Virus record (IMG/VR): IMGVR_UViG_3300029258_001230
DNA: 20,000 nucleotides
Reading direction: 5' to 3' (one strand)
Source: an uncultured virus (IMG/VR IMGVR_UViG_3300029258_001230)
Taxonomy: Duplodnaviria > Heunggongvirae > Uroviricota > Caudoviricetes
This document shows positions 623-20,000 of the stretch, in pieces. Position numbers and translations under genes: made by a program. Below the pieces are notes generated by a model. That model had not been told where the DNA came from and did no database searches. It saw only the letters and a list, made by a program, of their open reading frames with translations. How positions within the stretch are numbered: position 1 is the first letter of the stretch; each line of letters begins with the position of its first letter.

Positions 623-1120
623 ATGCACAAAGAAGCAAAAGAAGAGGCGATAAGGTTTTCTGAATTATATCTAAAAGATGCTGAAAATCTACAAATTTTA
701 GACGTAGGGAGTTATAGCGTTAATGGATCGTTAAGAGAGGTTTTTGAAAAACATGGAAACTATACAGGATTAGATATTCAGGAAGGAAAAAACGTTGATA
801 TTGTAAGCCCCGTAGATAACTTTATATTTACGGATAATATGTTTGACGTTATTGTTTCTAGTAGTTGCTTTGAGCATAATATCGTGTTTTGGAAAACATT
901 TGAAGAAATGATTAGAGTTGCTAAATCGGAAGCCTTAATTTTTATCAACACACCTAGCAGAGGTGGTTATCATGGTTATCCATTAGACTGTTGGAGGTTT
1001 TACAAAGACGCATATAAAGCGTTAGAGATGTCTAATTCTGGTAAAGTAGAGTTGTTGGAGCAAAGGTTTAATGATAAAGGGCATTGGGGCGATAATATCG
1101 GGATATTTAAAGTAAAGTAA
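623..1120 (+). CDS. Class I SAM-dependent methyltransferase (Methyltransf_11-like)
   Basis: ILDVGS motif I, YTGLDI, FDVIVSSSCFEH, YHGYPLDCWRF typical of glycan-locus methyltransferases. Confidence 0.85.
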   Translation: MHKEAKEEAIRFSELYLKDAENLQILDVGSYSVNGSLREVFEKHGNYTGLDIQEGKNVDIVSPVDNFIFTDNMFDVIVSSSCFEHNIVFWKTFEEMIRVAKSEALIFINTPSRGGYHGYPLDCWRFYKDAYKALEMSNSGKVELLEQRFNDKGHWGDNIGIFKVK

Positions 1121-1665
1121 TGAGAAAGGTTTATTATTCTACGCCATACGATCAGTCAATGAATATTGGAAGGTATTACAATGATTTCATGGAGCTACTT
1201 CCAAGTGATGATTGTTGGGCTGTTTTCACGGATGGAGATGCTATGTTCTCAACTCCTGATTACGGTAGTAAGATAGAGTACATAATCGCTAAACACGGAA
1301 AAGAATACCCTTTACTAACTTCTGTTACTAATCGAATAGGAAGACCAGAACAAAGAGTAAATGGAACATGGGAAAGTAATGATTTGTCGTTTCACAGAAG
1401 CAAGGGAGAGCAAGTATGGAGTCAAAATAAAGACCTTATAGATAACGCTACTAATTACCAACCAATAGGAGGGGTGTTATTAGCACTCAATAAAGGCAGA
1501 TGGAAAAAGGTAGGGAAATTCTCTGAAAAAGGGATGTTGGGAATTGATAACGATATTCACAGAAAATTTGTATCTTTCGGAATGAAAGTGGGTATCATGA
1601 AGGGTATTTATATGATTCATTGGTACAGAGGGGGAGACGCAAAAAACAAGAAACATTTATTATAA
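1120..1665 (+). CDS. GT-A fold (GT2-like) glycosyltransferase
   Basis: DxD motif in VFTDGDAMF, GGVLLAL..WKKVGKF, GIDNDI, terminal H motif; start overlaps upstream stop. Confidence 0.65.
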   Translation: MRKVYYSTPYDQSMNIGRYYNDFMELLPSDDCWAVFTDGDAMFSTPDYGSKIEYIIAKHGKEYPLLTSVTNRIGRPEQRVNGTWESNDLSFHRSKGEQVWSQNKDLIDNATNYQPIGGVLLALNKGRWKKVGKFSEKGMLGIDNDIHRKFVSFGMKVGIMKGIYMIHWYRGGDAKNKKHLL

Positions 1666-1676
1666 ACCGAATAAAC

Positions 1677-2222
1677 ATGGAAAGAAAAGTTTTTTTATTA
1701 GGAAGAGCTAAATCAGGAACGAGGTCTATTGATAAAGCCTTAAATGACTTAGGGTATTCGACTCTAAACAAACACCAAGGGCTAGATACCGATAATCTAG
1801 CACAAGACATCATTAAGAAAATGAAAAATAAAGGAGCTTTCACAGCTACCGTTAAATTTGATATTGAGCAAATAAAAGAGATTGAAAAAACTTATCCAGA
1901 AGCCGTGTTCATTCTTACGGAAAGACCTTCTGATAAGTGGTACTCATCATGGGTGGGTCATCATTCAAGAAAAGCAACAAAAGAAAATCCCAGAACAGAA
2001 GAAACGGCTTTTAAGAATAAAGGGGCGTGGGTAGATAAGTATTACATTGAGTATAATACTTTAGTAAAAAGACATTTCCAAGGAAGAGAATGGAAACTTT
2101 TACACATAATGTATGGAGCTAAAAATGATAATTGGGGCGCACTATGTAGCTTTCTTAAAAAGCCAGTTCCAAAAGGCGGTTTCCCACATCAAAATAGATC
2201 GGTAGATCAAAAGAAAAAGTAA
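1677..2222 (+). CDS. Sulfotransferase-like P-loop protein (Sulfotransfer_4-like)
   Basis: KVFLLGRAKSGTRSI (5'-PSB-like loop), FILTERPSDKWYSSW (3'-PB-like), WGALCSFLKKPVP..FPHQN; ATG 1677 preferred over the overlapping 1620 start. Confidence 0.75.
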   Translation: MERKVFLLGRAKSGTRSIDKALNDLGYSTLNKHQGLDTDNLAQDIIKKMKNKGAFTATVKFDIEQIKEIEKTYPEAVFILTERPSDKWYSSWVGHHSRKATKENPRTEETAFKNKGAWVDKYYIEYNTLVKRHFQGREWKLLHIMYGAKNDNWGALCSFLKKPVPKGGFPHQNRSVDQKKK

Positions 2223-2878
2223 TGAATCGAAAAGTCATATATAGTGCTATATTTGGCAATTACGATGCGGTCAAAATACATAGTCATATCAATAAGGAAT
2301 ATGACTATGTATTATTTTCTGACTCTGCTACTATATCAGCTCAATCTAGCAGGATGGATAGTTCTAATTGGACTGTTATCAATATGGGTAATGTTTCAAA
2401 TCCTCGTTTATTAGCTAGAGAATTAAAAGTTTTGAATAAGGTTTTAGGTTCTTATTCGGAATCAATATGGTTAGACGGTAAATATAAACAGATTGGAGAT
2501 ATTAACGATTTGTTTGAAAACGACTCAAGCTATTTTACGACTATGACTCATCCTAGTAGGAGTTGCGTATATAAAGAAGCGGAGGCTTGTGTTTCAATGG
2601 GTAGAGGGAATAAAGATGATATATTAACGCAGATAGAAAGGTATCAATCAGAAGGGCTTCCAAAAAACATCGGAATGGTTAATTCAGCCGTAATAAGGAG
2701 GTTTAACACACCTAGAGTTAATGCGATCAATGAGGGTTGGTGGAACGAGATAGAAAACGGAAGTATCAGAGACCAAATAAGTTTTAACTACGTTTTGTGG
2801 AAATTAAAAGAAAAAATCCATATATTCGACCATAACAAACTTAAAGGAGTTCTTCAAGAACACAAACATTTAATTTAG
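2222..2878 (+). CDS. DUF616 / TOD1-MUCI70-like glycosyltransferase
   Basis: VIYSAIFGNYD, SIWLDG, HPSRSCVYKEAEAC, RDQISFNYVLWK. Confidence 0.8.
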   Translation: MNRKVIYSAIFGNYDAVKIHSHINKEYDYVLFSDSATISAQSSRMDSSNWTVINMGNVSNPRLLARELKVLNKVLGSYSESIWLDGKYKQIGDINDLFENDSSYFTTMTHPSRSCVYKEAEACVSMGRGNKDDILTQIERYQSEGLPKNIGMVNSAVIRRFNTPRVNAINEGWWNEIENGSIRDQISFNYVLWKLKEKIHIFDHNKLKGVLQEHKHLI

Positions 2879-2883
2879 ACAAT

Positions 2884-3525
2884 ATGAAAAGATGGGACAT
2901 TATTAATTCTTATATCCATAAGGAAGGGTATTCTACGTATTTAGAAATCGGTTTGCAGTCTGGAATTTGCAGAGATAATATACAGATTCCAAACAAGAAT
3001 AAAACCACGGTAGACCCTGATGAAAGGTCAAATAACCCAACTCACAATATGACTTCTGATGAGTTCTTTGAGCAAAACGACAAGACTTTTGATGTGATAT
3101 TCATTGATGGATTACACCATGCAGAACAAGTGTTTAAAGATATTGAAAATGCCTTAGAGGTGCTTAATGAAGGTGGGACAATATTTTGTCATGATATGCT
3201 TCCAATTGAAGAGGTGCAAGCTAAAGTTCCGAGAGAAACGCAAGTATGGAACGGTGACTGTTGGAAGGCTTGGTATAAGTTAAAAGGTACTAGAGACGAC
3301 TTAGATATGTTCGTTATTGAAAGAGATTGGGGTGTTGGTGTTATTAAGAAAGGTTCTCAGGAAGTGGTCAAGGAATTAGATATTCCAATGAGTGAAATGA
3401 CTTGGTCTTTCTATATGGAGCATAAAAGAAAAAACACTATTGGAAAAATAGATGGGAAAGAATTTAAGAATCACAACCCAGAGTTCTTTAATGATCCGAA
3501 ACTATTTAAACCAATGAATAGATAG
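2884..3525 (+). CDS. Class I SAM-dependent methyltransferase (Methyltransf_24-like)
   Basis: YLEIG, TVDP, FDVIFIDGLH, LNEGGTIFCHD, WNGDCWKA. Confidence 0.85.
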   Translation: MKRWDIINSYIHKEGYSTYLEIGLQSGICRDNIQIPNKNKTTVDPDERSNNPTHNMTSDEFFEQNDKTFDVIFIDGLHHAEQVFKDIENALEVLNEGGTIFCHDMLPIEEVQAKVPRETQVWNGDCWKAWYKLKGTRDDLDMFVIERDWGVGVIKKGSQEVVKELDIPMSEMTWSFYMEHKRKNTIGKIDGKEFKNHNPEFFNDPKLFKPMNR

Positions 3526-3701
3526 TTGAGAATTTAAAACTAACGAGTAACTTAACTGATGTGCTAATACCAGAAAGTGAAGGTTCGTAAATATAAATAT
3601 ATTGACAGGATAGCCGAGCCTATATAAGTAAGTAGGAAGTTTCTAATGTTTTAAAGGATGGCAACAAGTTTTAATTAGAAGCGAAATAAATAGTTTGAAA
3701 A

Positions 3702-3872
3702 ATGAAATACACCATAGAAATATTAGAAAGAAGCATTGATTCTCTTGAAGTTGCTTATATGATGAGAGTAGTTAGAGGCACTGTTGATAAGGATAGTGAA
3801 CAAGCTATCATCAACAGACATAGAGTTGATGAGTTGAAGAAAGCAATAAACATTTTGCAAAGTAATTCATAA
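3702..3872 (+). CDS. Hypothetical 56-aa protein (not in ORF track)
   Basis: MKYTIEILERSIDSLEVAYMMRVVRGTVDKDSEQAIINRHRVDELKKAINILQSNS*; stop codon lies in left box of palindromic site 1. Confidence 0.65.
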   Translation: MKYTIEILERSIDSLEVAYMMRVVRGTVDKDSEQAIINRHRVDELKKAINILQSNS

Positions 3873-3996
3873 TGGTCGAGCATAACAAATGGTGGGGATA
3901 AAGAGCGAAACCCTTTCACACCACAAAAAAGATAATTAGTAACCGAATAGCTTAAAGTTGGAAACCTGCCCCACTTTTTGTTATACATTGTAATAG
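3867..3996 (+). repeat. attC-like site 1 (long type, degenerate core boxes)
   Basis: Arms ATAACAAATGGTGGGG (3882-3897) and CCCCACTTTTTGTTAT (3969-3984); outer boxes read AAT and GTA instead of AAC and GTT; 130 bp, similar to sites 2 and 5. Confidence 0.6.
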
Positions 3997-4019
3997 GTAG
4001 GCTTTAATACAATTTTATT

Positions 4020-4223
4020 ATGGCAAAGAAAGTTAAACGTCATGTAGTAAAAGAGACTCTTTATCATGCTATTTCAAAAAAGAAAAACGGAGAGGTTGTT
4101 AATTTAGAAATGAATGCTAAAAACAAAGCTCATTTCAAGAGAAAAGCAAAAGAGTTTGGGTACAGTGTTACTGGAAATATATTTTCAGGCAAGGCAAGGT
4201 CTTATATGGATATGCAACAGTAA
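4020..4223 (+). CDS. Hypothetical basic 67-aa protein (cassette cargo)
   Basis: ORF track; sole gene between sites 1 and 2. Confidence 0.7.
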   Translation: MAKKVKRHVVKETLYHAISKKKNGEVVNLEMNAKNKAHFKRKAKEFGYSVTGNIFSGKARSYMDMQQ

Positions 4224-4230
4224 TGTTACA

Positions 4231-4256
4231 AGGTAGGCTCTTTCGGGGGCTTACCT
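4231..4256 (+). other. Small hairpin abutting site 2
   Basis: AGGTAGGCTCT-TTCG-GGGGCTTACCT with G-T wobbles; no T-tract. Confidence 0.45.
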
Positions 4257-4387
4257 ATAACGGTTACTTGTATGAGTATTAGCCGATTAGAAATTACAGA
4301 AGTATCGAATTGAAAATTAACTTAATAAATAGTAATAGCTTTAAAAACAAGCACTGCAACGGCTATTGCTTATACAAATTGTTGTGG
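4255..4387 (+). repeat. attC-like site 2 (long type)
   Basis: CTATAAC-ggttac-TTGTATGAGTATTAGCCG ... CGGCTATTGCTTATACAA-att-GTTGTGG; 133 bp. Confidence 0.8.
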
Positions 4388-4401
4388 TGCGTTATTTAGC
4401 G

Positions 4402-4710
4402 ATGGCAAAATTTAGAAAGAAACCTGTGATTATTGAAGCAATTCAATTAAAAGAAACGAACATAAGCGAAGTGCTTAATTTTATGGGGCAAACTGTAAGA
4501 TTACCATCTTTTCAAGAGCAAATGAGATTTGAGCAGTATGAAGATAGTGTCATTGAAAACGGTATGGATATATACACTTTAGAAGATGGTAGAGATGGTA
4601 GAGCGAAGCACGTAGCGACTATTGGTGATTGGATTATTAAAGGTGTTAAAGGTGAGTTTTATCCTTGTAAACCTGATATTTTTGAACAGACCTATGAGAG
4701 CGTTGGCTAA
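4402..4710 (+). CDS. Conserved phage protein (KKPV.IEA / GDWIIKGVKGEFYPCKPDIF family), cassette cargo
   Basis: Recognisable widespread phage motifs; ATG 4402 preferred over TTG 4366, which lies inside site 2; stop TAA is part of GGCTAAC box of site 3. Confidence 0.85.
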   Translation: MAKFRKKPVIIEAIQLKETNISEVLNFMGQTVRLPSFQEQMRFEQYEDSVIENGMDIYTLEDGRDGRAKHVATIGDWIIKGVKGEFYPCKPDIFEQTYESVG

Positions 4711-4776
4711 CACCGTTATAACCTCCGTTTTAATGGAGGGTTATGTGGTGTTATGATCCGTTGCGATAGCTAATGG
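4705..4776 (+). repeat. attC-like site 3 (short type, 4705-4756) plus tail hairpin (4758-4776)
   Basis: TAACACC-gtt-ATAACC-TCC-gttttaat-GGA-g-GGTTAT-gt-GGTGTTA then CCGTT-GC-gata-GC-t-AATGG; near-identical to site 7. Confidence 0.85.
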
Positions 4777-4801
4777 CGTTTTCTTTTTTTAAATCAAATC
4801 A

Positions 4802-5080
4802 ATGATAGTAAAATATTCAATAATAGTATTCCTTACTCAATTAGTTTTCATAGGTTGTAGAACGTGGAATGTTAAGGCAATATCTAAAGATAAGATTGGT
4901 CAAGTTCTTTTGTCTGGATCATTAATACATATAGCATGGTTGATTTCTATTTCAATTGGTGCTATTTCTGTAAATGAAATTATTTCCGATTTTGATTGGA
5001 GGTATTTACCTGTTGTAATCTGCTCTTTGATAGGTGGATTAGTAGGTAGCTATATCTCAATGAAAAGTAAAAAGATTTAG
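4802..5080 (+). CDS. Small integral membrane protein (about 3 TM helices)
   Basis: Three hydrophobic segments, GGLVGSY glycine motif. Confidence 0.75.
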   Translation: MIVKYSIIVFLTQLVFIGCRTWNVKAISKDKIGQVLLSGSLIHIAWLISISIGAISVNEIISDFDWRYLPVVICSLIGGLVGSYISMKSKKI

Positions 5081-5086
5081 AATACA

Positions 5087-5131
5087 TTTGTATTTTAACA
5101 ATCAAAACTATATTTTAGCACAAACACAAAC
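5087..5131 (+). promoter_or_regulatory. Putative Bacteroidota-type promoter with ACACAAAC leader
   Basis: TTTG(5087)-N20-TATTTTAG(5111) then CACAAACACAAAC; resembles TTTG/TAnnTTTG consensus; recurs at 8490, 18192 (-) and 19866 (-). Confidence 0.55.
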
Positions 5132-5141
5132 ATTTTAAATC

Positions 5142-6185
5142 ATGGAATTAGAAAAGATTGACCCTGAAAAGTATGGGTTAGAAGAAATGAAAGCGGAACA
5201 AATACGTTCTCAATTTCAACCAATGCTTGACAAGATGGTCGAGTTAGAAAAGGAAGCAAATGAAGTGTTTAGCAAGCCTATTGATGAAGACACTTGTAAA
5301 TTAGCTAAAGAGGTTAGGTTGAAATTCGTTAAGGTAAGAACAGGAACGGCTAAAGTTCATAAGGAGCAAAAGGCTTTTTACTTAGCGGCTGGTAAGTTTA
5401 TTGATGGGTGGAAGAACACACAAAAATTTGCTTCTGAGGGAGTTGAAAAACGTCTTTTAGAAATTGAGAAGTATTACGAAAACTTGGAACTTCAAAAAAT
5501 CAAGGAATTAAGAGAGTCCAGAGAAGAAGAGTTGAAGTCGTTTGATGTAGAGGTTATTCCAGAGGGGTTAGGCGTAATGGATGATGCTATTTGGGATAAT
5601 TACATTCAGGGAGTCAAGACCAACCACAAGTTAAGAAAAGAAGCAGAAGAAAAGTCTCGATTGGAACAAGAGGAGAAAGAGCGAAAAGCAAAACTTCACG
5701 AAAGCAGAAAGAATAAGGTTCTTCATTTTTGGTTCTTAATGAATGATGAAGAAAAGCAGTTAGATTTTTCGGACTTCACTAATGATGAGTTTGACCAATT
5801 TTATCAAGACTTCTCAAAGCAGAAAGAGAATCACGATTTAGATCAAAAGAAAATTAAGGAAGAGAACGAAAGGCTTAAACGTGAGCAAGAGGAGAAAGAA
5901 GCCGAGGCAAAACGTCAAAGAGAGTTAGAAGCTAAAAAGCTCAGAAAACTAGAGGAGGAGAAAAAGGCTTTAGAACTAGAAGCTGAAAACAAGCGAAAAG
6001 CAGAAAAGGAAAAAGAAGAATTAGAACTTTCCAAAAAGGATTCGGATAAGGTTAAAGCACTAATCAATGATGTTACCGAATTAAAATTAAAGTATTCTTT
6101 CAAGTCAAAGAAGAATAAAGTAATGTTTGATGGGGTGTGTTCTCTTTTAGAGAAAGTAATCCATTATATTCAGACAAATAGTTAG
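5142..6185 (+). CDS. Coiled-coil phage protein, function unknown
   Basis: 347 aa, strongly E/K-rich helical C-terminal half. Confidence 0.85.
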   Translation: MELEKIDPEKYGLEEMKAEQIRSQFQPMLDKMVELEKEANEVFSKPIDEDTCKLAKEVRLKFVKVRTGTAKVHKEQKAFYLAAGKFIDGWKNTQKFASEGVEKRLLEIEKYYENLELQKIKELRESREEELKSFDVEVIPEGLGVMDDAIWDNYIQGVKTNHKLRKEAEEKSRLEQEEKERKAKLHESRKNKVLHFWFLMNDEEKQLDFSDFTNDEFDQFYQDFSKQKENHDLDQKKIKEENERLKREQEEKEAEAKRQRELEAKKLRKLEEEKKALELEAENKRKAEKEKEELELSKKDSDKVKALINDVTELKLKYSFKSKKNKVMFDGVCSLLEKVIHYIQTNS

Positions 6186-6217
6186 TAAACAATTTTTTTA
6201 ATTATAAATCAAGTATT

Positions 6218-6685
6218 ATGAATTTCAAGTGTAAAATTTCCTACATTAAACAGAACGAAAACGGATCAGTTGTAAAAGTTAAAGAAGAATATGTAGTTCC
6301 TGCATTGTCTTTTACCGAAGCAGAAGCGAATCTTCAAAGTATTTTAGAAAGCTATATTGCAGAGTATAACCTTGAAAGCTGTACTCCTTTAAAAGTGACA
6401 GATGTTATTTTTGGAGAGGGAGCAGATGATTTTTACAAAGCTAAGATAGATTATGTTAGTTATGATGAAGATTCTGGGAAAGAAAAGAAGATTTCTGAAA
6501 CTTATTTAATCCGTTCTAACAACCTTAAAGATTGTTTACCTATGATTGAATCAAGAATGGAAGGAAGTGTTGTTAATTGGGAGGTAACGTCTGTTTCAAA
6601 GACCAATATCGCAGACGTGTTTGTTGCTGAGCAATTAAAAGAAGCTTTAGGAATGAATATTCAAGAATCTGTTGAATCAAAGTAA
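6218..6685 (+). CDS. DUF4494-like protein (Bacteroidota)
   Basis: FKCKISY..ENG..KVKEEYVVPALSFTEAE, FYKAKI..DEDSGKEKK. Confidence 0.8.
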   Translation: MNFKCKISYIKQNENGSVVKVKEEYVVPALSFTEAEANLQSILESYIAEYNLESCTPLKVTDVIFGEGADDFYKAKIDYVSYDEDSGKEKKISETYLIRSNNLKDCLPMIESRMEGSVVNWEVTSVSKTNIADVFVAEQLKEALGMNIQESVESK

Positions 6686-6687
6686 AA

Positions 6688-6915
6688 ATGGATTTAAAAT
6701 GTATTGATAAGCATAAAGACGAGGACTCCGTTTTGGAGTTCTTGTCCGTTGCTAAAGAGTTTGATAACGGCATTTCGTTAGAGGACAATGTAACTATATT
6801 AAATATGGACAGGTTTTGTAATTCAATGATTAACCTAATCAAAGCAAAACCAAGTAAGCTTCAATATGAGCTAGCTATCCAAATGTCAAAATCATTAATG
6901 GCAGAGATTACCTAA
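6688..6915 (+). CDS. Hypothetical protein
   Basis: ORF track; starts 3 bp after upstream stop. Confidence 0.65.
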   Translation: MDLKCIDKHKDEDSVLEFLSVAKEFDNGISLEDNVTILNMDRFCNSMINLIKAKPSKLQYELAIQMSKSLMAEIT

Positions 6916-6995
6916 TAAACATTTTGTTAAAAAACAATAGGCAATTGCAGTAAAATTGAGTTTAACTTTATAATCCAAAATTAAAATTCAAGACT

Positions 6996-7157
6996 ATGGC
7001 AGAAATTCAGGAAGAGATTAAGAGATTACAGGGTAAGTTGACGGGGGATATGTTTAAAGACATGGACGTTAAACATAGAATCCATAAGTTAGAAATGAAG
7101 ATGAATGGTGTGAAGCCGAATGATTCTCATTTTGAGTGCGTTGGATGTAGTGCTTAA
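6996..7157 (+). CDS. 53-aa protein ending in CxxC-S-A (not in ORF track)
   Basis: MAEIQEEIKRLQGKLTGDMFKDMDVKHRIHKLEMKMNGVKPNDSHFECVGCSA*; AT-rich leader and own terminator. Confidence 0.8.
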   Translation: MAEIQEEIKRLQGKLTGDMFKDMDVKHRIHKLEMKMNGVKPNDSHFECVGCSA

Positions 7158-7181
7158 TTAATTTTAGTTTTAGTTTTTAGG

Positions 7182-7208
7182 AAAAGAGGGGTAATTCCCT
7201 CTTTTTTT
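7182..7208 (+). terminator. Rho-independent terminator
   Basis: AAAAGAGGG-gtaatt-CCCTCTTTT plus T-tract. Confidence 0.8.
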
Positions 7209-7297
7209 GTATATTAGTGTCACACAAACGTTAATAACAGGTAATTGTAATGAGACTAGAGGTCAATAGAATTGCTAATGAATGCCTTTAAATATTA

Positions 7298-7371
7298 CAA
7301 TAACACCGTAATAACAAACGTCCGCAGGATGTTTAGTTATGGGGTGTTGAAGAGCGTTGCGAAGCTAATGC
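7298..7371 (+). repeat. attC-like site 4 (short type, 7298-7352) plus tail hairpin (7354-7371); solo copy
   Basis: AACACC-gta-ATAAC-AAACGTCC-gca-GGATGTTT-a-GTTAT-gg-GGTGTT then GCGTT-GC-gaa-GC-t-AATGC; near-identical to site 6. Confidence 0.85.
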
Positions 7372-7405
7372 GAATTATTTTAAAAAACACACAAATACTA
7401 AAATT

Positions 7406-7825
7406 ATGATTGAGTTAATACCACCTTACGTCTATGTTGGGTTAGATTACAAAGTAGAGGATAAGGACTATATTTCTTATGTGGAAGATAAAACAAAAAC
7501 CATTATTAATAGGTTTTGCGGATTAGATTACCAAACATATATGATAGATAATGCTAATAGTAGAAAAAGAGAGTATGTTGTTCCTAGACAAATATACTTC
7601 TTTTTATGCCATAACATTCTTTTGGGCAGAAGGGAATATATTATATCCAAGTTTGCAAGAGAAAAGGGTTTTAATCATGGAACTCTTATTTCAAATATTA
7701 ATAGGATAAAAGGGTTTGTGGAAACAGATAAGTTGCTTAACTTTGAAATTCAGAACATGTTAAAATCAATAAAAGAATGGACTTTTCGTTACGAGCCAAC
7801 AAACACTTTTCAAGACCTCTTTTAG
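7406..7825 (+). CDS. Protein with DnaA C-terminal (domain IV)-like helix-turn-helix
   Basis: SRKREYVVPRQIYFFL ... NHGTLISNINRI ... ETDK resembles DnaA domain IV (R.r.i..pRQiamyl ... dHtTv.ha..ki). Confidence 0.6.
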   Translation: MIELIPPYVYVGLDYKVEDKDYISYVEDKTKTIINRFCGLDYQTYMIDNANSRKREYVVPRQIYFFLCHNILLGRREYIISKFAREKGFNHGTLISNINRIKGFVETDKLLNFEIQNMLKSIKEWTFRYEPTNTFQDLF

Positions 7826-8352
7826 TCAAACTTTTCAAGAATTTAAAAGGTGTTAATTGTAAAGTAGTATTCAATAAAGGGTGTAATTATTATTCTCCAG
7901 AACTAAGTATTCAGCAAAAGGAGCAAATTAATAAGTTGGTTGGATTTTCCGATGGGTTGTTTGTTCATAGAAATTCATTCAGGGTAGGTTGGAGGGCAAA
8001 TACTATTGGAGATATTGAGTTGTTTGCATATTTCTATAAAAACGGGAAAAGACCAAGCCTTCCTGAGATTGAGTACACCTATTATTTAGGTTCTGTATCT
8101 ATTGGAGAGCCTTTTGATGTTTCGATTAATAAAGTTAGTGGTAGTTATGGGGAGTCCGATTACGTTAAATATATTGTCCGAACAAGTAAAACCAAAAGTA
8201 AGGTGTTGATAGAACATAAGTCTAAAAAATCTTATGGTTGGTTTTTGAAACCCTACATTGGTGGAAAAGCTACCTATCCAAACGATATGAGTATTACGAT
8301 CAATGAAAAATCAAAAAAAGAATACTACTTCAAAGCAAAAGGTTTTAAGTAG
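7777..8352 (+). CDS. Hypothetical phage protein (predicted beta-rich)
   Basis: ORF track; NKLVGFSDG..HRNSFRVGWR, LKPYIGG; true start uncertain. Confidence 0.7.
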   Translation: MDFSLRANKHFSRPLLVKLFKNLKGVNCKVVFNKGCNYYSPELSIQQKEQINKLVGFSDGLFVHRNSFRVGWRANTIGDIELFAYFYKNGKRPSLPEIEYTYYLGSVSIGEPFDVSINKVSGSYGESDYVKYIVRTSKTKSKVLIEHKSKKSYGWFLKPYIGGKATYPNDMSITINEKSKKEYYFKAKGFK

Positions 8353-8494
8353 AGTAGACCTTAAAGGTGTCAGGCTTTGCCAATTCTACACGGATAATCC
8401 TGATTTGTTCCATAACGATAAAAGGAAGCAATACAATATATTAGGAGGGGTTGATTTCCTGCCATTGTATGATGATGTAGAAGAGGATGTTTGA
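8303..8494 (+). CDS. Hypothetical protein
   Basis: ORF track; overlaps upstream gene by 50 bp. Confidence 0.45.
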   Translation: MKNQKKNTTSKQKVLSRVDLKGVRLCQFYTDNPDLFHNDKRKQYNILGGVDFLPLYDDVEEDV

Positions 8495-8535
8495 TTTAAT
8501 AAATTAATTTATTATATTGTACCATACACAAACAC
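8490..8535 (+). promoter_or_regulatory. Putative promoter with ACACAAAC leader
   Basis: TTTG(8490)-N19-TATATTGT(8513) then ACACAAACAC before ATG 8544. Confidence 0.45.
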
Positions 8536-8543
8536 ATTGAATT

Positions 8544-8825
8544 ATGAAAAAGATTACTATTCCAGACCTGATTGTTAATTTAGAGTCTAAAAAAAGGGTT
8601 GACAAACAAGCTCCCGAAGAATCCTTACCTGACCTATATAAGAAGATTGGCTATGGTTTAGCTTTAGAGTCTTTAGAGGAGTGTAAAGATTACATTATTC
8701 ACTCAGTAAAAGGGTTTGAAGAAGCTATATCTATTTGCCGAATGTTAATCAAGAACGATAGGAAGTTAAGTAAGGATGAAATATTGGAATCATTAAAATT
8801 GTTCTTAGAAAATAACGAGTTATGA
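8544..8825 (+). CDS. Hypothetical protein
   Basis: ORF track; ATGA overlap with next gene. Confidence 0.7.
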   Translation: MKKITIPDLIVNLESKKRVDKQAPEESLPDLYKKIGYGLALESLEECKDYIIHSVKGFEEAISICRMLIKNDRKLSKDEILESLKLFLENNEL

Positions 8826-9199
8826 AAGATGAATATTTAAGAGAAAAAATCATTGCTGAATCAAAAATCCAGTCTTTAGAAGCCTCCGTCAGTAGAGAAA
8901 AAGAGATTTCAAGTAAGGCTATTGAGTCTTTAAATAGTTTCGCATCATGGCTTATAGTGGTAGTCATATTTTTTCTAAGTATAATATCATGGAAGTTTTA
9001 TGACTCCAAACCTAAGTCGCAATTAGAGTTAGAGAATGAGCGTTTGAAACAAGAGCTTAAATTTAAGCAGGAGATAATCAATAGTTGGGAGGATCATGCC
9101 AACAGAATGAAAAGAATAGTTGGTCTTCCAGATACAGTTGAGTGGTCTTATAAGCAAAAGGTTATTCGCCCAATAGATACTCATAAATTAGAGAAGTAA
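8822..9199 (+). CDS. Hypothetical single-TM coiled-coil protein
   Basis: Hydrophobic FASWLIVVVIFFLSIISW followed by coiled coil. Confidence 0.7.
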   Translation: MKDEYLREKIIAESKIQSLEASVSREKEISSKAIESLNSFASWLIVVVIFFLSIISWKFYDSKPKSQLELENERLKQELKFKQEIINSWEDHANRMKRIVGLPDTVEWSYKQKVIRPIDTHKLEK

Positions 9200-9216
9200 C
9201 AAAATTTTGAAAACAA

Positions 9217-9645
9217 ATGGAAACAAAAAATTTACGAATAGGAAACTTGGTGGGAATAAAGAAAACCGCCCTACACGCTGACGGCTGCAATACTGAAAAC
9301 ACCTTCTTTGAAATAGAGGAACTAAAAAAAGACGTAGTGCAATTTAAAGGCTTTCACGCTGGCGAATATTACAAAGACTTGAAGGGAATCAAACTTAATG
9401 AAGGGATGCTATCTCTATATGGTTTTAAACGTTCAAGTGAGAAACTAATTTACTTGCCAATACCACAGATAAAATCTGAAATACACTTTGAGAAACACGC
9501 TTACGGGAACGTGATAACCTTACAAAGTAGTGTAGGGATGTTTGTTCCAAATGATATTCAGTACTTCCACGAATTGCAGAATCTATTTTTTTCGATTACT
9601 GGCGAAGAACTTGAATTAGTACACGAACGTAGCACTTGTGGCTAA
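9217..9645 (+). CDS. Conserved Bacteroidota phage protein (LRIGN ... HELQNLFF..TGEEL family)
   Basis: Characteristic terminal motifs; stop TAA is part of GGCTAAC box of site 5. Confidence 0.8.
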   Translation: METKNLRIGNLVGIKKTALHADGCNTENTFFEIEELKKDVVQFKGFHAGEYYKDLKGIKLNEGMLSLYGFKRSSEKLIYLPIPQIKSEIHFEKHAYGNVITLQSSVGMFVPNDIQYFHELQNLFFSITGEELELVHERSTCG

Positions 9646-9771
9646 CGTATAGTGGTATGGTGTCGTAGCGGATTAGAACGCACGAACCTTTGAATAATAA
9701 CAGAACTTAATAAATAGAATAAATGATTGACTTAAACGAAAAACCGCTATGCACTATACCACGTGTTACAG
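9640..9771 (+). repeat. attC-like site 5 (long type)
   Basis: GGCTAAC-gtata-GTGGTATGGTG-t-CGTAGCGG ... CCGCTATG-CACTATACCAC-gt-GTTACAG; 132 bp. Confidence 0.85.
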
Positions 9772-10679
9772 GCAGTACGGGTATAAATGTACTATCTCTT
9801 TTTGACGGAATGAGTTGTGGACAAATAGCTTTGCAAAAGGCAGGAATAAAGGTTAACCAATACTTTGCAAGTGAGATAAAACCACACGCGATAAAAGTAA
9901 CTCAACATAACTTCCCAAATACAATACAATTAGGTAGCGTATTAGATGTAAAAGCAAGTGATTTACCGAAAATTGATTTATTGATAGGTGGAAGCCCTTG
10001 CCAAGATTTTAGTTCAGCTAATAAAGAGAAATTAGGATTGCAAGGCGAAAAATCAGGGTTATTTTATGAGTATTTAAGACTTTTAAAAGAATGTGAGCCT
10101 AAATACTTTTTACTTGAAAATGTCGCAATGGATGATTATAGTTATGCAGCAATAAGTGAAATGCTTGGAACTTACCCAACTAACATAAATAGTGAACTTG
10201 TATCAGGGCAATTAAGACAAAGAAGTTATTGGACTAATATAGGTCCGGAAAGTTTTGATTTATTTGGAAATAGATACTCAATGATACCACAACCTAGAAA
10301 CAAAAAAATAAAGTTTCAAAATTTATTAGAGAATGGATATACAGATAGATTAAAAGCAAGGTGTTTACTTGAAAGCGAAAGTAGAAATCCGGGTAGTACA
10401 TTTTCATCATTAAGAAGATATATGATAATGGGGTTTATTAATGTTATTTTTAAAGACGAAGAAACTTATAATAAATACTCTAAAATGACCGAAGATGAAA
10501 TGAAATTAAATTTTGTTGATGGCGATATTAGAAAGCTAAACCAAACAGAAATGGAAAGGCTGCAAACAGTACCAGAAGGATATACAAGTATTTTAAAAAG
10601 AAATGAAGCAGCTTGTTTGCTTGGTGATGGATGGACTGTTGATGTTATTGCACATATTTTCGGATATGCACAGTTTTAG
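9723..10679 (+). CDS. DNA (cytosine-5)-methyltransferase, orphan
   Basis: Motif I VLSLFDG, motif IV GGSPCQ, motif VI LLENV, motif VIII QLRQRSYW, motif IX ERLQT, motif X LGDGW; no cognate endonuclease nearby. Confidence 0.95.
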   Translation: MIDLNEKPLCTIPRVTGSTGINVLSLFDGMSCGQIALQKAGIKVNQYFASEIKPHAIKVTQHNFPNTIQLGSVLDVKASDLPKIDLLIGGSPCQDFSSANKEKLGLQGEKSGLFYEYLRLLKECEPKYFLLENVAMDDYSYAAISEMLGTYPTNINSELVSGQLRQRSYWTNIGPESFDLFGNRYSMIPQPRNKKIKFQNLLENGYTDRLKARCLLESESRNPGSTFSSLRRYMIMGFINVIFKDEETYNKYSKMTEDEMKLNFVDGDIRKLNQTEMERLQTVPEGYTSILKRNEAACLLGDGWTVDVIAHIFGYAQF

Positions 10680-10685
10680 TATTGC

Positions 10686-10759
10686 CTGTAACACCGAAAT
10701 AACAAACGTCCGTAGGATGTTTAGTTATGGAGTGTTAAAGAGCGTTCCGAAGGAAATGC
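10686..10759 (+). repeat. attC-like site 6 (short type, 10686-10740) plus tail hairpin (10742-10759)
   Basis: TAACAC-cgaa-ATAAC-AAACGTCC-gta-GGATGTTT-a-GTTAT-gga-GTGTTA then GCGTT-CC-gaa-GG-a-AATGC. Confidence 0.85.
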
Positions 10760-10810
10760 GAACTATTTATGAAATTTTGACAAATCAATTAAAAACAATA
10801 TATTTAAACT

Positions 10811-11053
10811 ATGAATCATCAAAAAGGAACACTAGGTTATTTACGATCGAATGGCTATATTAAAGCGGTCAACAGAATAGAGGATTTGGCTAAAAGACAA
10901 GATGTTGTAGTTCACGACATTGAGAACCCGTTATTTGTTGTAGATTTTACAGAGTCAGAAGAGGGTGCGGTTTTTTGGAAAAAGTTTCTCTCTGGGGATT
11001 TTGAATCATTAATAGTAAAAGAACATGAACATTTATTAAATTTAGAAGTATGA
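10811..11053 (+). CDS. Hypothetical protein (F.ES.EG..FW motif)
   Basis: ORF track; ATGA overlap with next gene. Confidence 0.7.
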   Translation: MNHQKGTLGYLRSNGYIKAVNRIEDLAKRQDVVVHDIENPLFVVDFTESEEGAVFWKKFLSGDFESLIVKEHEHLLNLEV

Positions 11054-11322
11054 AAAGAGGCTTTAAATGGTGGGTAGAACTTTACGAGAAAAACGAGTTA
11101 ACCCAAATTTTATCAGCAGGAGGATTAATGTGCCTATGTGCTATAATAGCAAACTTTAACGATGACTTCATGTATGGGGTTGTCTTTTTTGCTTTATTGT
11201 TTGCCGTAATGATTCTGAGATATATTGTTTATGCTTGGATTATTTACCCAATTAAAGCGAAGAAAGAAAGCAGGCAAAGAAAGTTAAACAAGGATAAAGA
11301 ACTTTTCGGGGATGATAATTAA
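11050..11322 (+). CDS. Hypothetical membrane protein (2 TM)
   Basis: Two hydrophobic segments, basic tail. Confidence 0.7.
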   Translation: MKRGFKWWVELYEKNELTQILSAGGLMCLCAIIANFNDDFMYGVVFFALLFAVMILRYIVYAWIIYPIKAKKESRQRKLNKDKELFGDDN

Positions 11323-11443
11323 GGTTATACTGGTAGCTATTGTTTTAGAGTTGTTTTTAAAACCCAGATTGGATAGAACTAATCAAGGTGTATGGCTATT
11401 GTGGTATGGTCGTAAAAACAGAGACTACATTAAATTGAATTAG
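11312..11443 (+). CDS. Hypothetical 43-aa membrane-anchored peptide (not in ORF track)
   Basis: MIIKVILVAIVLELFLKPRLDRTNQGVWLLWYGRKNRDYIKLN*; fills the gap between 11322 and 11446. Confidence 0.55.
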   Translation: MIIKVILVAIVLELFLKPRLDRTNQGVWLLWYGRKNRDYIKLN

Positions 11444-11445
11444 AT

Positions 11446-11838
11446 ATGTTTGGATTAAGAAAAAAAGTTAAGCAGTTAGAGCGTGATTTACGAAGTATTC
11501 AGTTAGGTTTAGGTTCTACTCCTAACAGGTTGGGCAGTCAAGAAAGGCGAATTGATAAATTAGAGAAGAAGTTTAGGGAGCAAGAATTAGATGGTTTTAA
11601 GCGAGATAACCCTCCTAAGTTTGAGTTAGGTTCTGTTCATGAAAAAGAGTCTAAAAATGGAGAGGTAGTTGATTTTGTGATAATCGGGGTCAAGCCTTAT
11701 AGGTCTGTTAGTGATAACCCTGTGACTAATCCGTTAAAACTTAAAGGTACGAGTTACGGAAAACCTAATACTTATCTTTACACCCTGAAAACAAAGGATG
11801 GAAAAGTAGAAAAAGCTCTTCTTGAAGAAGAATTATAA
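11446..11838 (+). CDS. Hypothetical protein
   Basis: ORF track, 130 aa. Confidence 0.7.
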   Translation: MFGLRKKVKQLERDLRSIQLGLGSTPNRLGSQERRIDKLEKKFREQELDGFKRDNPPKFELGSVHEKESKNGEVVDFVIIGVKPYRSVSDNPVTNPLKLKGTSYGKPNTYLYTLKTKDGKVEKALLEEEL

Positions 11839-11866
11839 AATAAACAGTAAATAAATAAACCGAATC

Positions 11867-12505
11867 ATGGCAAAAACAAAGATTTTTTTAGATATGGAGT
11901 TTACAGGGCTTCATAAGTTAACAACACCTGTATCAATAGCTTTAGTATCAGAAAATGGACGTGAATACTATGCGGAATTTACGGATTATGATAAGCTTCA
12001 AGTAGATGATTTTATCGCTCAAATGGTAATAAAGAATCTTACTCTTGATGAGTATGTTTTTGAACGGGATTACGATCCAAATGCAAAAAGCGTTTTAGTA
12101 AAAGGGGATAGCGATTTAATTCGCCAAACTTTAGAGAAGTGGTTAGAGCAATTCAAAGATGATGGAGTTGAAATATGGGGTGATGTTCCAACGTATGATT
12201 GGGTTCTATTCGCTAGTATTTTTGGGAGTGCTTTGGATATTCCAAGCCATGTGTACTATATTCCGTTAGATATTTCTACGGTAATGAGGACTTGCGGAGT
12301 TGATCCAGATGTAAATAGAGAAGAATTTGCTTATAATGGAGCAATTCCTAAAGAAGTAGATAGTGGCAAGCACAACGCTTTAACCGATGCAAAGACTATG
12401 ATTGAGTGTTATAAACGCTTATTAGAGATAAGCACAGAGTCTAAATCAAGTGAAGAAACCTCTGGAGAAGATATTGAAACAGTAGAAACAGAAGAAGTTG
12501 ATTAA
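11867..12505 (+). CDS. DEDDh 3'-5' exonuclease (Rv2179c/DUF5051-like exoribonuclease)
   Basis: Exo I IFLDMEFTGL, Exo II YDWVLF, Exo III HNALTDA. Confidence 0.85.
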   Translation: MAKTKIFLDMEFTGLHKLTTPVSIALVSENGREYYAEFTDYDKLQVDDFIAQMVIKNLTLDEYVFERDYDPNAKSVLVKGDSDLIRQTLEKWLEQFKDDGVEIWGDVPTYDWVLFASIFGSALDIPSHVYYIPLDISTVMRTCGVDPDVNREEFAYNGAIPKEVDSGKHNALTDAKTMIECYKRLLEISTESKSSEETSGEDIETVETEEVD

Positions 12506-12629
12506 ATGTTATGATTCAACTCTGATGTCATACGTTGTAAGAGGACGCACAGGACAACCAACAACACAAAAGGTTGACTATTGACATAAGAAAGAATAGC
12601 TAAGGACTGTGTGAGGGTTTCGTAATAAT

Positions 12630-12830
12630 AAAAGCGGTAAGGGAGTGAGGCGGTGAGCTTTAAAATAGGTGGCGGTGCGTACGACTGAAAGTTAATTGAC
12701 CGTTTAAATAACTACCTACCCTTATCGCTTTTCTTTGTAAGTATAAAATCCATAGACGGTGAGGTATAGCGTCTGTTTAGAAATAGTAGTCACAGATTGT
12801 GGCTTCAAGTATATTCAGACAGCCGTCTAT
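12630..12830. other. Structured non-coding region (candidate ncRNA)
   Basis: AAAAGCGGTAAGGG (12630-12643) pairs with CCCTTATCGCTTTT (12719-12732); ATAGACGG (12752-12759) pairs with CCGTCTAT (12823-12830); nested inner stems. Confidence 0.4.
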
Positions 12831-12836
12831 ATAATT

Positions 12837-12912
12837 ATTGAACACCGTTATAACCTCCGTGCGAAGCCATGGAGGGTTATGTGGTGTTACGAGCCGTTGC
12901 GAAGCTAATGGC
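12837..12912 (+). repeat. attC-like site 7 (short type, 12837-12892) plus tail hairpin (12893-12912); solo copy
   Basis: AACACC-gtt-ATAACC-TCCGTG-cgaagc-CATGGA-g-GGTTAT-gt-GGTGTT then GCCGTT-GC-gaa-GC-t-AATGGC and T-tract; near-identical to site 3. Confidence 0.85.
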
Positions 12913-12938
12913 GTTTTCTTTTTTTTAATAATAGAACA

Positions 12939-13460
12939 ATGGATAATAATGAAATCAAGACATTCGTAATTTTAGGGATGCACCGATCAGCAACTTCTTT
13001 AGTTGCTAAATCAATGAATGAAAATGTGTTTATGGGGTATAATGAGGAGATGTTACCTCCAGCTCCAGACAATCCAGAAGGATTCTTTGAAAATAAAAGA
13101 TTTTTAGAGTTGAATGATGCTATACTTCATAAGGCAGGGGGTAACTGGTTAGAACCACCTTTAAAAGAAGCGATTTTAGAGCAGAAGAGTGAGTTTTTGA
13201 GTGATATTACCTCAATCGTAAATGAATATAACGAGAATGGCTTAAATTGGGGATGGAAAGACCCTAGAACAAGTTTGACTATTCCTTTGTTTCACGAACA
13301 TCTTATAAATCCTCACTATATTAGCGTGTTTAGAGAGCCTTTAGAGGTTGCTAAGTCATTAAATAGGCGTAATGGTATTTCAATTGAGAAAGGAATGTTA
13401 TGCGCTAAGGAATACAATTACCGAATCATTCAGTTTTTGAGTGAGTTTGGATTGAAGTAA
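12939..13460 (+). CDS. Sulfotransferase family protein
   Basis: ILGMHRSATS (PAPS 5'-phosphosulfate loop), NPEGFFE, WGWKDPRT, FREPLEVAKSL (3'-phosphate-binding R..S). Confidence 0.85.
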   Translation: MDNNEIKTFVILGMHRSATSLVAKSMNENVFMGYNEEMLPPAPDNPEGFFENKRFLELNDAILHKAGGNWLEPPLKEAILEQKSEFLSDITSIVNEYNENGLNWGWKDPRTSLTIPLFHEHLINPHYISVFREPLEVAKSLNRRNGISIEKGMLCAKEYNYRIIQFLSEFGLK

Positions 13461-13480
13461 TTAATAATATTATAGCAAAT

Positions 13481-13512
13481 AAAAAGCCTCTACTTAATCG
13501 TGGAGGTTTTTT
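13481..13512. terminator. Bidirectional terminator between the converging arms
   Basis: AAAAAGCCTCTAC-ttaatc-GTGGAGGTTTTT, A-tract left and T-tract right. Confidence 0.8.
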
Positions 13513-14273: not shown

Positions 14274-14663
14274 TTAAAAGTGATTATTTGCTACTAAGGT
14301 AATAAATATAGCCCACATTATAAGGAGTACCCAAAAGGTTACTGAAAACAGATTGTTTAATTCAGAGCTTCCCTTCGCCCAAGATTTAAGAGTGAACCAT
14401 TTGTTGTGCCAAGGGTGATTGGAGGCGGAAGCATAGCGATTAAATAGATTAACGAGTATCCAAGTCGGGAAAACCAATAAGTGTTTAGCAATATATTTTG
14501 TGTGTAGCATGATCCTATCGAGCCAAGATGATTGCTTAAAGGTCAATTTGTATGTCTCTGACTTGTCTATGTTTTTAAAACTTAATTCGACTCGTTGCTT
14601 TTTATCTGTATCACTCAAGTCTATTGTTTGTTTAGGGTGTTTAAACGGTTTATGTAGGATCAT
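14274..14663 (-). CDS. Hypothetical membrane protein
   Basis: ORF track; C-terminal hydrophobic helix. Confidence 0.65.
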   Translation of the reverse strand: MILHKPFKHPKQTIDLSDTDKKQRVELSFKNIDKSETYKLTFKQSSWLDRIMLHTKYIAKHLLVFPTWILVNLFNRYASASNHPWHNKWFTLKSWAKGSSELNNLFSVTFWVLLIMWAIFITLVANNHF

Positions 14664-14673
14664 TCTTGATGTG

Positions 14674-14874
14674 TTAAAAAAGGTAGTTAATAATAATTAT
14701 AGATACAATACATATACCGTATATAATCACTTTTGTTACTATATAAGGTATGTCTGGTTTAAAGCTAGTTGAACACTCTCTTGTTCTAGTGTTTGATTCG
14801 TTATCTGTTACCATTTCTGCATAGGGTTGTTTGAAATTTATGCCAAAATCAGCTTTCTTTTGTAGGTCTTTCAT
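14674..14874 (-). CDS. Hypothetical protein with C-terminal TM helix
   Basis: ORF track; tandem packing with neighbours. Confidence 0.6.
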   Translation of the reverse strand: MKDLQKKADFGINFKQPYAEMVTDNESNTRTRECSTSFKPDIPYIVTKVIIYGICIVSIIIINYLF

Positions 14875-14883
14875 AGATTATTT

Positions 14884-15132
14884 TTAAAATTCAAGATCTG
14901 ATTTGTCTATTTGCATTTTACCAGTCCATTTGATGTTTACCCAAGCCTTTTGCAATGGGTTTTTGCAATCTTTTAATAGTAAGGGAATACTGAAAACAAC
15001 CTTGTAAGGGCGATTCTTCATAAAATCAGTCTTAATGATATGCGCACCTATTTTAATAAAGTTTATTTTATTAAGAGGTACGTTTATTATTAGAGAGTCT
15101 CCTTCTTTGTATCGGTTTAATTTATTACTCAT
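14884..15132 (-). CDS. Hypothetical protein
   Basis: ORF track frame; ATG 15132 (MSNKLNR) preferred over TTG 15153. Confidence 0.6.
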   Translation of the reverse strand: MSNKLNRYKEGDSLIINVPLNKINFIKIGAHIIKTDFMKNRPYKVVFSIPLLLKDCKNPLQKAWVNIKWTGKMQIDKSDLEF

Positions 15133-15232
15133 GTCTTCTAAATATTCTTTCAATTAAGTTCCTTTGTTTGAGTATATGCAAGTCTGATTTGAGGTTAGTT
15201 ACTTCGCTTTCCAATCGCTTTACCTCTTTCAT
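15125..15232 (-). CDS. Possible 35-aa coiled-coil peptide (not in ORF track)
   Basis: MKEVKRLESEVTNLKSDLHILKQRNLIERIFRRHE*; fills gap and overlaps next start. Confidence 0.4.
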   Translation of the reverse strand: MKEVKRLESEVTNLKSDLHILKQRNLIERIFRRHE

Positions 15233-15267
15233 TAGTCTAATCTCTCTATTAGTAGCTCTAAGCTTGT

Positions 15268-15453
15268 TTAATTTCGGCATACGTCTATCTTTCTAATATT
15301 TGATACAATCTCTGCTTTAGTCTTTTTAGCAACATGGTCGGCGAAGTCTTTTAGGAAGTAATGCAGGTATTGACCACCCCCTTCTTTCTCTATCCTTTGA
15401 TTAGAATCACAATCCATTTTTGCTAGGTAATTGGATATTTCTTTTGGCGTCAT
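15268..15453 (-). CDS. Hypothetical protein
   Basis: ORF track; ATGA overlap with upstream gene. Confidence 0.6.
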   Translation of the reverse strand: MTPKEISNYLAKMDCDSNQRIEKEGGGQYLHYFLKDFADHVAKKTKAEIVSNIRKIDVCRN

Positions 15454-19981: not shown

Positions 19982-20000
19982 AGCCACCAAAACACCCAAA

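Follow-up and report, generated by a model that had tools for sequence, protein, structure and literature searches.

The nearest published counterpart of the element considered here is the pair of attC-like sites of phage P12002L, in whose genome, according to Qi et al. (2023, PMC9892861), a CALIN (cluster of attC sites lacking integron integrases) comprises two attC-like sites and two methylase genes; P12002L_attC2 recombined with attI1 under the action of IntI1, and attC1 did not. The locus analyzed in this work lies in a stretch of 20,000 nucleotides of an uncultured caudoviricete virus (IMG/VR record IMGVR_UViG_3300029258_001230; this whole stretch is referred to below as the window), where the gene of a C5 cytosine DNA methyltransferase is preceded by a long hairpin and bracketed by two complementary 14-nt sequences, designated X and X'. 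Positions 9647-10692 probably represent a gene cassette of an integron-like module system that is found in phages of Flavobacteriia and is free of an integron integrase. The design itself, a hairpin followed by a gene with matched ends, is common to many flavobacterial phages. The primer sequence published for P12002L attC2 coincides with the stretch right after an X' in our alignment of P12002L, while the accessible part of the same paper (Qi et al., 2023, PMC9892861) mentions no bracketing stems, fixed mismatch or in-site start codons. No description of the hairpin-X-cargo-X' architecture was found in the accessible portions of the literature searched, and in the main text of the paper on the Danklef phages (PMC8776804) the terms "hairpin", "cassette", "palindrom" and "inverted repeat" do not occur.

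Integrons and CALINs resemble the phage cassettes in that both form arrays of small genes with imperfect AAC...GTT hairpins, the cassette start is complementary to the outer end box, one strand is favoured and methylases are found among the cargo. The phage units differ from them in the position of the site, which is upstream of the gene, in the outer box, which measures 14 bp rather than 7 bp and has a fixed G-T pair, and in the loop that holds the start codon and the arm that is translated; besides, no integron integrase, attI or Pc (the cassette promoter) was found in the window. Viewed from the opposite strand, a phage unit is formally an integron cassette with its gene reversed. The attI1 site of class 1 integrons is known to supply translation initiation to cassettes that have none of their own (ORF-11, cassette fusions); it is, however, a single site heading the array, whereas each phage unit has its own hairpin. 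A palindromic mobile sequence read in frame is represented by the Rickettsia palindromic elements, which are selfish insertions inside genes and carry no cargo, unlike the phage palindrome, which heads a cargo gene. The PeSL (promoter early stem-loop) elements of T4-type phages are similar to the phage cassettes in having conserved intergenic regulatory motifs flanking variable small genes, in indel boundaries of sister phages lying at these motifs and in the mini-circles proposed for them (Arbiol et al., 2010, PMC2839356; Comeau et al., 2014, PMC4122927). Their sequences are unrelated to the hairpins of the phage cassettes. PeSL exchange reportedly proceeds by homologous recombination between promoter and terminator motifs, and these elements are not known to have complementary ends peculiar to each cassette or a start codon within the motif.

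The methylase locus consists of the following features.

9643-9646, plus strand: TAAC, marking the left limit of the unit; its first three letters, TAA, terminate the upstream gene (9217-9645)
9647-9764, plus strand: B-type hairpin (site 5 of the sequence-only reading; B2 below), recognized by folding and by identity with contig L021
9723-10679, plus strand: open reading frame (ORF) of the C5 cytosine DNA methyltransferase, 318 amino acids, PF00145
9765-9778, plus strand: X, the 5' half of the bracketing stem, GTTACAGGCAGTAC; GTTA and 10 further nucleotides, translated as V-T-G-S-T
10679-10692, plus strand: X', the 3' half of the bracketing stem, GTATTGCCTGTAAC; 10 nucleotides and TAAC, the latter being the right boundary of the unit
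9647-10692, plus strand: the whole putative mobile unit of 1,046 bp, i.e., hairpin, X, methylase and X'
10689-10768, plus strand: A-type element (site 6 of the sequence-only reading), a hairpin (TAACAC...GTGTTA) followed by a second small terminator-like hairpin

B2 is composed of the spacer GTATA, the left arm (9652-9671), an A-rich loop of 72 nt (9672-9743), the right arm (9744-9762) and the spacer GT, and is closed by TAAC at 9643-9646 and GTTA at 9765-9768. Judged by its fold, it has the layout of an attC-type site (TAAC, 5-nt spacer, stem of 19-20 bp, loop, 2-nt spacer, GTTA). The predicted fold reaches -29.1 kcal/mol on the coding strand versus -22.5 kcal/mol on the complement. The encoded protein matches PF00145 from residue 22 (E-value 9.7e-36, 124.2 bits at a cut-off of 22), the match being split in two stretches with the variable middle poorly covered; the catalytic Pro-Cys motif is seen in the translation as GGSPCQ, and the protein thus qualifies as a C5 methyltransferase.

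X and X' are reverse-complementary at 13 of 14 positions, and the remaining position 11 forms a G-T pair, with G in the 5' copy and T in the 3' copy of the plus (coding) strand; the first base of X' is the G of the methylase stop codon TAG. This pairing, noticed in the sequence-only reading, is read directly in the sequence, and it is equally correct that neither site 5 nor site 6 pairs its own flanks beyond TAAC/GTTA (2-3 of 10 positions by eye). For the comparisons below, a signature pair was defined by three conditions, namely G-T at position 11, pairing throughout positions 12-14 and Watson-Crick pairing at a minimum of 8 among positions 1-10. In positions 3501-13500 of the window, X/X' was the sole signature pair among 6,487 GTT/AAC-anchored comparisons, against 0.03 expected from shuffled sequences. 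One could still suppose that the complementarity is due to chance and the N-terminal extension of the protein is an artefact of ORF calling, given that the sequence is AT-rich and the plus strand of the window has two other GTT/AAC-anchored pairs matching at 13 of 14 positions. These two pairs bear no signature and do not lie at hairpin junctions, while the X/X' pair, together with its reading frame, recurs in a related locus, L053; hence we find an origin by chance hardly credible.

The second peculiarity of the locus is the start codon. The ATG at 9723, located inside the 72-nt loop of B2, is the first ATG, GTG or TTG codon after the in-frame stop, and ORF 9723-10679 contains no other in-frame codon of these three before the ...LSLFDG-M stretch of motif I; inspection of the ORF accordingly left no alternative to the start proposed earlier. 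Codons 1-15 (MIDLNEKPLCTIPRV) come from the loop, from the right arm and from the GTT of the closing box, the latter being read as Val, also as proposed. The homologue from Cellulophaga phage phi18:3 begins with an ATG of its own (MKNG-INVLSLFDG), has no hairpin and aligns with the window protein only from residue 20. Close relatives of this C5 methylase were found behind three different loops, one in L053, one in L112 and the window form (the last being also that of L111, which is not independent because it is identical to the window over 3,000 nt), and the leaders read from these loops are MIDLNEKPLCTIPRV of the window, MKETLNTAQNPLCTIPRV and MNTDNKKKENEQCTIPRV; in all three cases an in-frame ATG is present in the loop and none in the cargo. 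The ...PLCTIPRV leader is also carried by unrelated methylases. Loop ATG codons followed by a translated arm and X were also observed in the P12002S methylase 38053-37358 and coding sequence 40566-40318, and in genome G001 at 15644 and 16588. Translation initiation independent of a Shine-Dalgarno sequence is known in Bacteroidota. As judged from sequence comparison, the methylase appears to have lost its own first codons and to be read from the loop ATG through the right arm and X, a conclusion that is well supported; the homologue, the three loop variants and the shared leader all favour the view that the site doubles as a translation start.

Comparison of related phages delimited the unit. 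Homology between the window and L053 extends over 9643-10693 (a block of 1,051 bp; 85.8% identity over 1,053 nt, 88% between the methylases) and is flanked by unrelated DNA on both sides; the A-type hairpin is missing after the L053 copy, and the A-type element at 10689-10768 is a part of the next unit, not of the methylase cassette. Two Polaribacter phages, Danklef_1 and Danklef_2, differ by a 781-bp insertion in Danklef_1 with 99.8% identical flanks. The insertion comprises a hairpin, X (GTTACCTGTAGTAA), an adenine methylase gene and X' (TTATTACAGGTAAC), and its two boundaries lie directly after the C of ...TCTAAC and ...GGTAAC; Danklef_2 retains the downstream hairpin and is devoid of the upstream one. 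Between P12002S and P12002L, a methylase block is swapped, with both boundaries directly after AAC. According to these three comparisons, the hairpin goes with the gene downstream of it; the window/L053 boundaries and the Danklef indel thus support the inverted polarity (a site moving with the downstream gene) on which the sequence-only reading relied. The existence of a discrete unit, along with the donation of the start codon, is well supported. Relatives of the upstream gene 9217-9645 were sought as an empty site, and none were found in viral contigs.

These boundaries bear on known types of mobile elements. In an ordinary integron array (CALIN) of classical orientation, each gene would be followed by its own attC, with a host integrase cutting between G and TT downstream. 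Such an array would explain the AAC...GTT inverted core with its imperfect hairpin, the attC calls made by HattCI/INFERNAL in the sister phage P12002L and the recombination of one of these sites with attI1 under IntI1 (Qi et al., 2023, PMC9892861). This polarity was nevertheless rejected: the Danklef and L053 boundaries place the hairpin upstream of the gene, and the downstream hairpin does not move with it, being absent from the L053 cassette and kept in Danklef_2. Considering also the 14-bp outer paired box, in place of the 7-bp one, and the lack of integron components in the window noted above, we regard the classical arrangement as very improbable. We also rejected a transposon that is flanked by terminal inverted repeats and duplicates TAAC as its target, as no inverted repeats are formed by the ends of the Danklef insertion within the TAACs. 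Elements of the IS200/IS605 family insert after a fixed tetranucleotide, are cut next to hairpins, exhibit strand polarity and produce no target duplication. An element of this kind, cut after TAAC by an HUH nuclease encoded elsewhere and guided by the subterminal hairpin, would fit the insertion 3' of a fixed tetranucleotide, the absence of duplication beyond the common TAAC, the strand polarity and the hairpin next to the cut site. The phage units, however, stand in ordered head-to-tail arrays and not as scattered copies, no Y1 transposase (PF01797) was detected in the five records searched, and no transposase family was recognized among the scanned ORFs of the window, so that this explanation seems improbable.

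The same hairpin precedes different genes in different genomes. B2 is 97% identical to its counterpart in the IMG/VR contig L021, the homology beginning at 9640 and the flanks showing neither DNA nor protein similarity; in L021 the hairpin leads into a different methylase (PF01555) with the same first 15 residues, divergence begins right after GTGTTA, and the cassette has its own matched ends, GTTATGTGCTGGGC and GCCTTGCACATAAC. The exact 20-mer of the right arm was found in 98 metagenome loci, L111 among them, ahead of 26 different X sequences. The arm, ending in ...CTIPRV, continues in frame into a PF00145 methylase, into PF01555 methylases of two kinds (the second in L096) and into a DUF551 protein (L060); it also leads into small Cys-rich peptides and into a fragment of 43 residues (L061) that has a Dam-like motif and no Pfam match. 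The methylases reached in this way belong to at least three unrelated families. The commonest X leads into a PF01555 methylase in 52 loci, in 24 of which the matching X' is present on the contig. Where enough upstream sequence was available (82 loci), a complementary left arm was found at a distance of up to 170 nt in at least 59; the energy of the duplex between the left and right arms is about -33 kcal/mol versus -10 to -14 kcal/mol for shuffled sequences. The loop pattern of B-type hairpins retrieved 23 loci, among which only L004, L006 and L021 are real elements and the rest an unrelated repeat or chance matches, and the A-type pattern retrieved a single locus in viral contigs. In the L070 contig (990,847 bases), the hairpin arm occurs together with a matched X/X' pair, the members of which are 1,026 nt apart; as this contig is nearly one megabase long, units of this kind probably occur in a cellular genome or a prophage as well.

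Hairpins of both types are repeated in the window. B-type hairpins (4258-4388 and 9643-9768) have a long stem, a loop of about 72-75 nt and a conserved ...AATAAATAG ahead of the start, while A-type elements (TAACACC...GGTGTTA with a small terminator-like hairpin) occur in four copies, at 4707, 7300, 10689 and 12840. Stem differences among the copies are compensating changes, and all seven hairpins of the window are more stable on the coding strand than on the complement with both RNA and DNA parameters. Two further features belong here.

4258-4398, plus strand: second B-type hairpin (B1) with its X (GTTGTGGTGCGTTA), upstream of the gene 4402-4710
4226-4261, plus strand: gene-less GTTA...TAAC hairpin (S1), resembling an empty X-loop-X' bracket

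B1 is 92% identical to its copy in contig G002, the flanking genes having no DNA or protein similarity; no X' matching the X of B1 was found downstream within the window, while the G002 copy is followed by another gene and by a matching X'. S1 is missing from the G002 copy, and comparable empty brackets of 61-62 nt are present in G002 and Danklef_1. Such short gene-less GTT...AAC hairpins bear the G-T signature too and may represent either brackets that have been emptied or the form from which the bracket arose.

The matched ends proved to be a general and polar signature. Six regions with a total length of 42,257 nt contained 28 signature pairs on the coding strand and one on the other strand, versus 0.23 expected from shuffles, with spans from 61 to 1,231 nt. 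Among 30 strong distinct pairs, position 11 is G-T in 21, and seven more have a T-T mismatch at position 10. In the 26 distinct signature pairs, positions 10-12 of X are A/T-G-T and the opposite bases of X' are A-T-T, the remaining part of the stem varying freely; the X/X' stems differ among cassettes, with compensating changes. Runs of units in which TAAC-hairpin-GTTA is followed by X, cargo and X' were found in G001 (14.9-17.5 kb), G002, P12002S, P12002L and Danklef_1. An origin of X/X' by deamination of methyl-cytosine was dropped, since symmetric mutation would not always strike the 3' copy. Brackets as invertible segments, i.e., invertase sites, were also considered; the gene is sense-oriented in all brackets but one, that at 14606-15181 of P12002S (L033), where a plus-strand signature bracket among late genes encloses a gene annotated on the minus strand, the only case seen of cargo antisense to the bracket polarity. 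In the same genome, X'-spacer-X junctions at 41694-41664, 41084-41054 and 40148-40117 lie in frame within annotated ORFs, and the HNH endonuclease 41415-40975 runs across a junction into a 108-nt mini-unit encoding a four-Cys peptide; the P12002S units may be fused at the protein level, or these ORFs may be mis-called fusions.

The most likely, though unproven, mechanism is site-specific recombination of a folded strand through a circle. Each unit would consist of a long imperfect hairpin between TAAC and GTTA, whose A-rich loop holds the translation start, of the 14-nt X beginning with that GTTA, of the cargo gene and of the complementary 14-nt X' ending in TAAC, and would be moved by recombination events in the folded coding strand, at its TAAC/GTTA positions. 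Upon excision and closure of the unit, X' would adjoin the hairpin, and X', hairpin and X would form one continuous extended stem serving as the recombination site; the strand would be marked in it by the fixed G-T at position 11, which corresponds to an A-C mismatch on the opposite strand. The modelled site of the closed unit is more stable than the array form (-49.9 versus -37.5 kcal/mol with RNA parameters and -22.5 versus -14.1 kcal/mol with DNA parameters). Thus, of the circular intermediate with an extended stem put forward in the sequence-only reading, the stem is favoured as a structure by the folding energies, and the circle remains conjectural. A small Xer-like tyrosine recombinase of the phage or its host, or a single-strand nuclease, is possible as the enzyme. 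A 197-residue protein matching PF00589 is encoded in G002 at 14717-15310. In Danklef_1 (41006-41455; 707-1156 of L037), about 0.5 kb past the examined array stretch L035, there is a tyrosine-recombinase catalytic domain (PF00589) with stops upstream and no ATG; this could be a remnant, or its start could be an unusual one. The cargo consists mostly of DNA methylases, and therefore the system probably serves the swapping of anti-restriction genes.

A number of observations weigh against this interpretation. The methylase is the only gene of the window with matched ends, other genes between the window hairpins (e.g., 4402-4710) having none. No recombinase or transposase family was matched in the scans of the window ORFs (36 ORFs with Pfam and 38 with PHROGs), the complete P12002S and P12002L genomes contain no PF00589 match, and PF00239, like PF01797, gave no matches in the five records. 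Neither a unit-closing nor a unit-skipping joint was seen in the assembled contigs of the sequencing runs; a joint that goes back is due to the A-type repeat 7300/10689 within one contig. The 1,080-bp indel between P12002S and P12002L crosses over 12-15 nt inside the hairpin arm, B2 is shared by the window and L021 but X differs, and B1 with its X is shared by the window and G002 but the cargo differs; since the breakpoints are not at a single point, ordinary recombination at conserved sequence also contributes. About 19 of the 82 metagenome loci have no left arm within 170 nt of the right one. The common PF01555 (N6_N4) methylase cassette has its own ATG directly after GTT, so that the leader is unnecessary there, and in 7 of the 26 X types no ATG lies in frame upstream. 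As the arm is equally conserved in these seven, the leader peptide was rejected as the conserved object: the arm is apparently kept as nucleic acid and not as peptide. In two runs, X3 and X4, contigs stop at 9768, i.e., at the hairpin-closing GTTA, where a second, diverged copy of the hairpin ends too; this fits branching after GTTA, with several cassettes behind one hairpin, and proves nothing.

Part of these observations would be expected under the main rival explanation, a role of the stems in RNA, which is possible and which we nonetheless consider rather unlikely. It supposes that the hairpins and the X/X' stems act in polycistronic early mRNA and that the modules are shuffled by homologous or microhomology recombination in a PeSL-like manner, the hairpin showing the A-rich start region in an open loop and the X/X' stem being a processing site or a folding insulator. 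RNase III is known to process mRNAs of phage T7 and rRNA precursors. The folding strand is the transcribed strand, and hence the G-T polarity, which follows the sense strand both in the signature pairs and in the hairpins, fits a role in RNA equally well and likewise counts against a recombination site. The start codons in the loops in several genomes, the indel junction within homologous arm sequence, the breakpoints on both sides of X and the lack of a recombinase in the complete P12002S and P12002L genomes are in favour of the RNA role, too. However, of four junction pairs, three are at TAAC and share no more than 4 nt, despite the longer arm homology available; a stem of 14 bp would be a weak closure for as much as 1.2 kb of translated RNA, and X itself is translated; and a fixed G-T flanked by conserved bases (A/T-G-T opposite A-T-T) is not predicted by selection for pairing alone. 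Besides, recombination at the DNA level has been observed for one site from this phage group, with IntI1 in E. coli (Qi et al., 2023, PMC9892861). Considering these facts, we prefer the reading of the locus as a mobile gene cassette.

The cassette is set in a phage of marine type; the window has a G+C content of 33% and small genes located chiefly on the plus strand until approximately 13.5 kb. Family matches of the window ORFs (Pfam and PHROGs) are those of a phage, i.e., DUF4494, an RNase H-like exonuclease, a DnaA-C-like protein and a Cro/CI-type regulator, along with glycosyl-, sulfo- and methyltransferases. A near-identity search of the phage collection with the whole window gave no match; the methylase and some other elements of the window match phages of Cellulophaga, Polaribacter, Croceibacter and Flavobacterium. 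Genes resembling those of an S-adenosylmethionine (SAM) methyltransferase, a TOD1/MUCI70-like glycosyltransferase and a sulfotransferase form a cluster at 623-3525, and another sulfotransferase-like gene (12939-13460) follows an A-type hairpin; together they make up a set unusual for a phage. Upstream of the fourth A-type hairpin, 335 nt without an ORF (12506-12840) have a predicted fold of -88.6 kcal/mol and match neither Rfam nor tRNA models. In the whole window, the Rfam and tRNA scans revealed nothing relevant, the sole Rfam match being a weak Thr-leader. A scan for sigma-70-type promoters, the scope of which does not include Bacteroidota-type promoters, returned 25 promoter-like sites versus 38 in shuffled sequences and none in the B hairpin. 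C-rich direct repeats (CCCTCCAC...) are located on the plus strand at the window end (19897-19998), in a region of minus-strand genes.

More tentatively, flavobacterial phages may carry a gene-capture class of their own, an "inside-out integron", with a folded single-strand site upstream of each gene, a recombinase other than IntI, a cassette-specific outer stem of 14 bp whose invariant G-T (A-C) mismatch sets the strand, and a portable translation start. If so, genes lacking a start codon and a promoter, chiefly anti-restriction methylases, would be expressed wherever they land, and a recombination site giving both the start codon and a common N-terminal peptide would be a compact way to express captured genes. 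For annotation this would mean that many such genes will get wrong starts or appear as fused ORFs. TAAC-hairpin-GTTA together with matched 14-mers having G-T at position 11 would provide a signature by which cassettes can be found and delimited in metagenomes, and the fixed mismatch would be a direct handle on finding the enzyme. Such a system would explain how lytic phages of the abundant marine and freshwater Flavobacteriia exchange accessory genes, above all the DNA methylases that defeat host restriction, while carrying no integrase.

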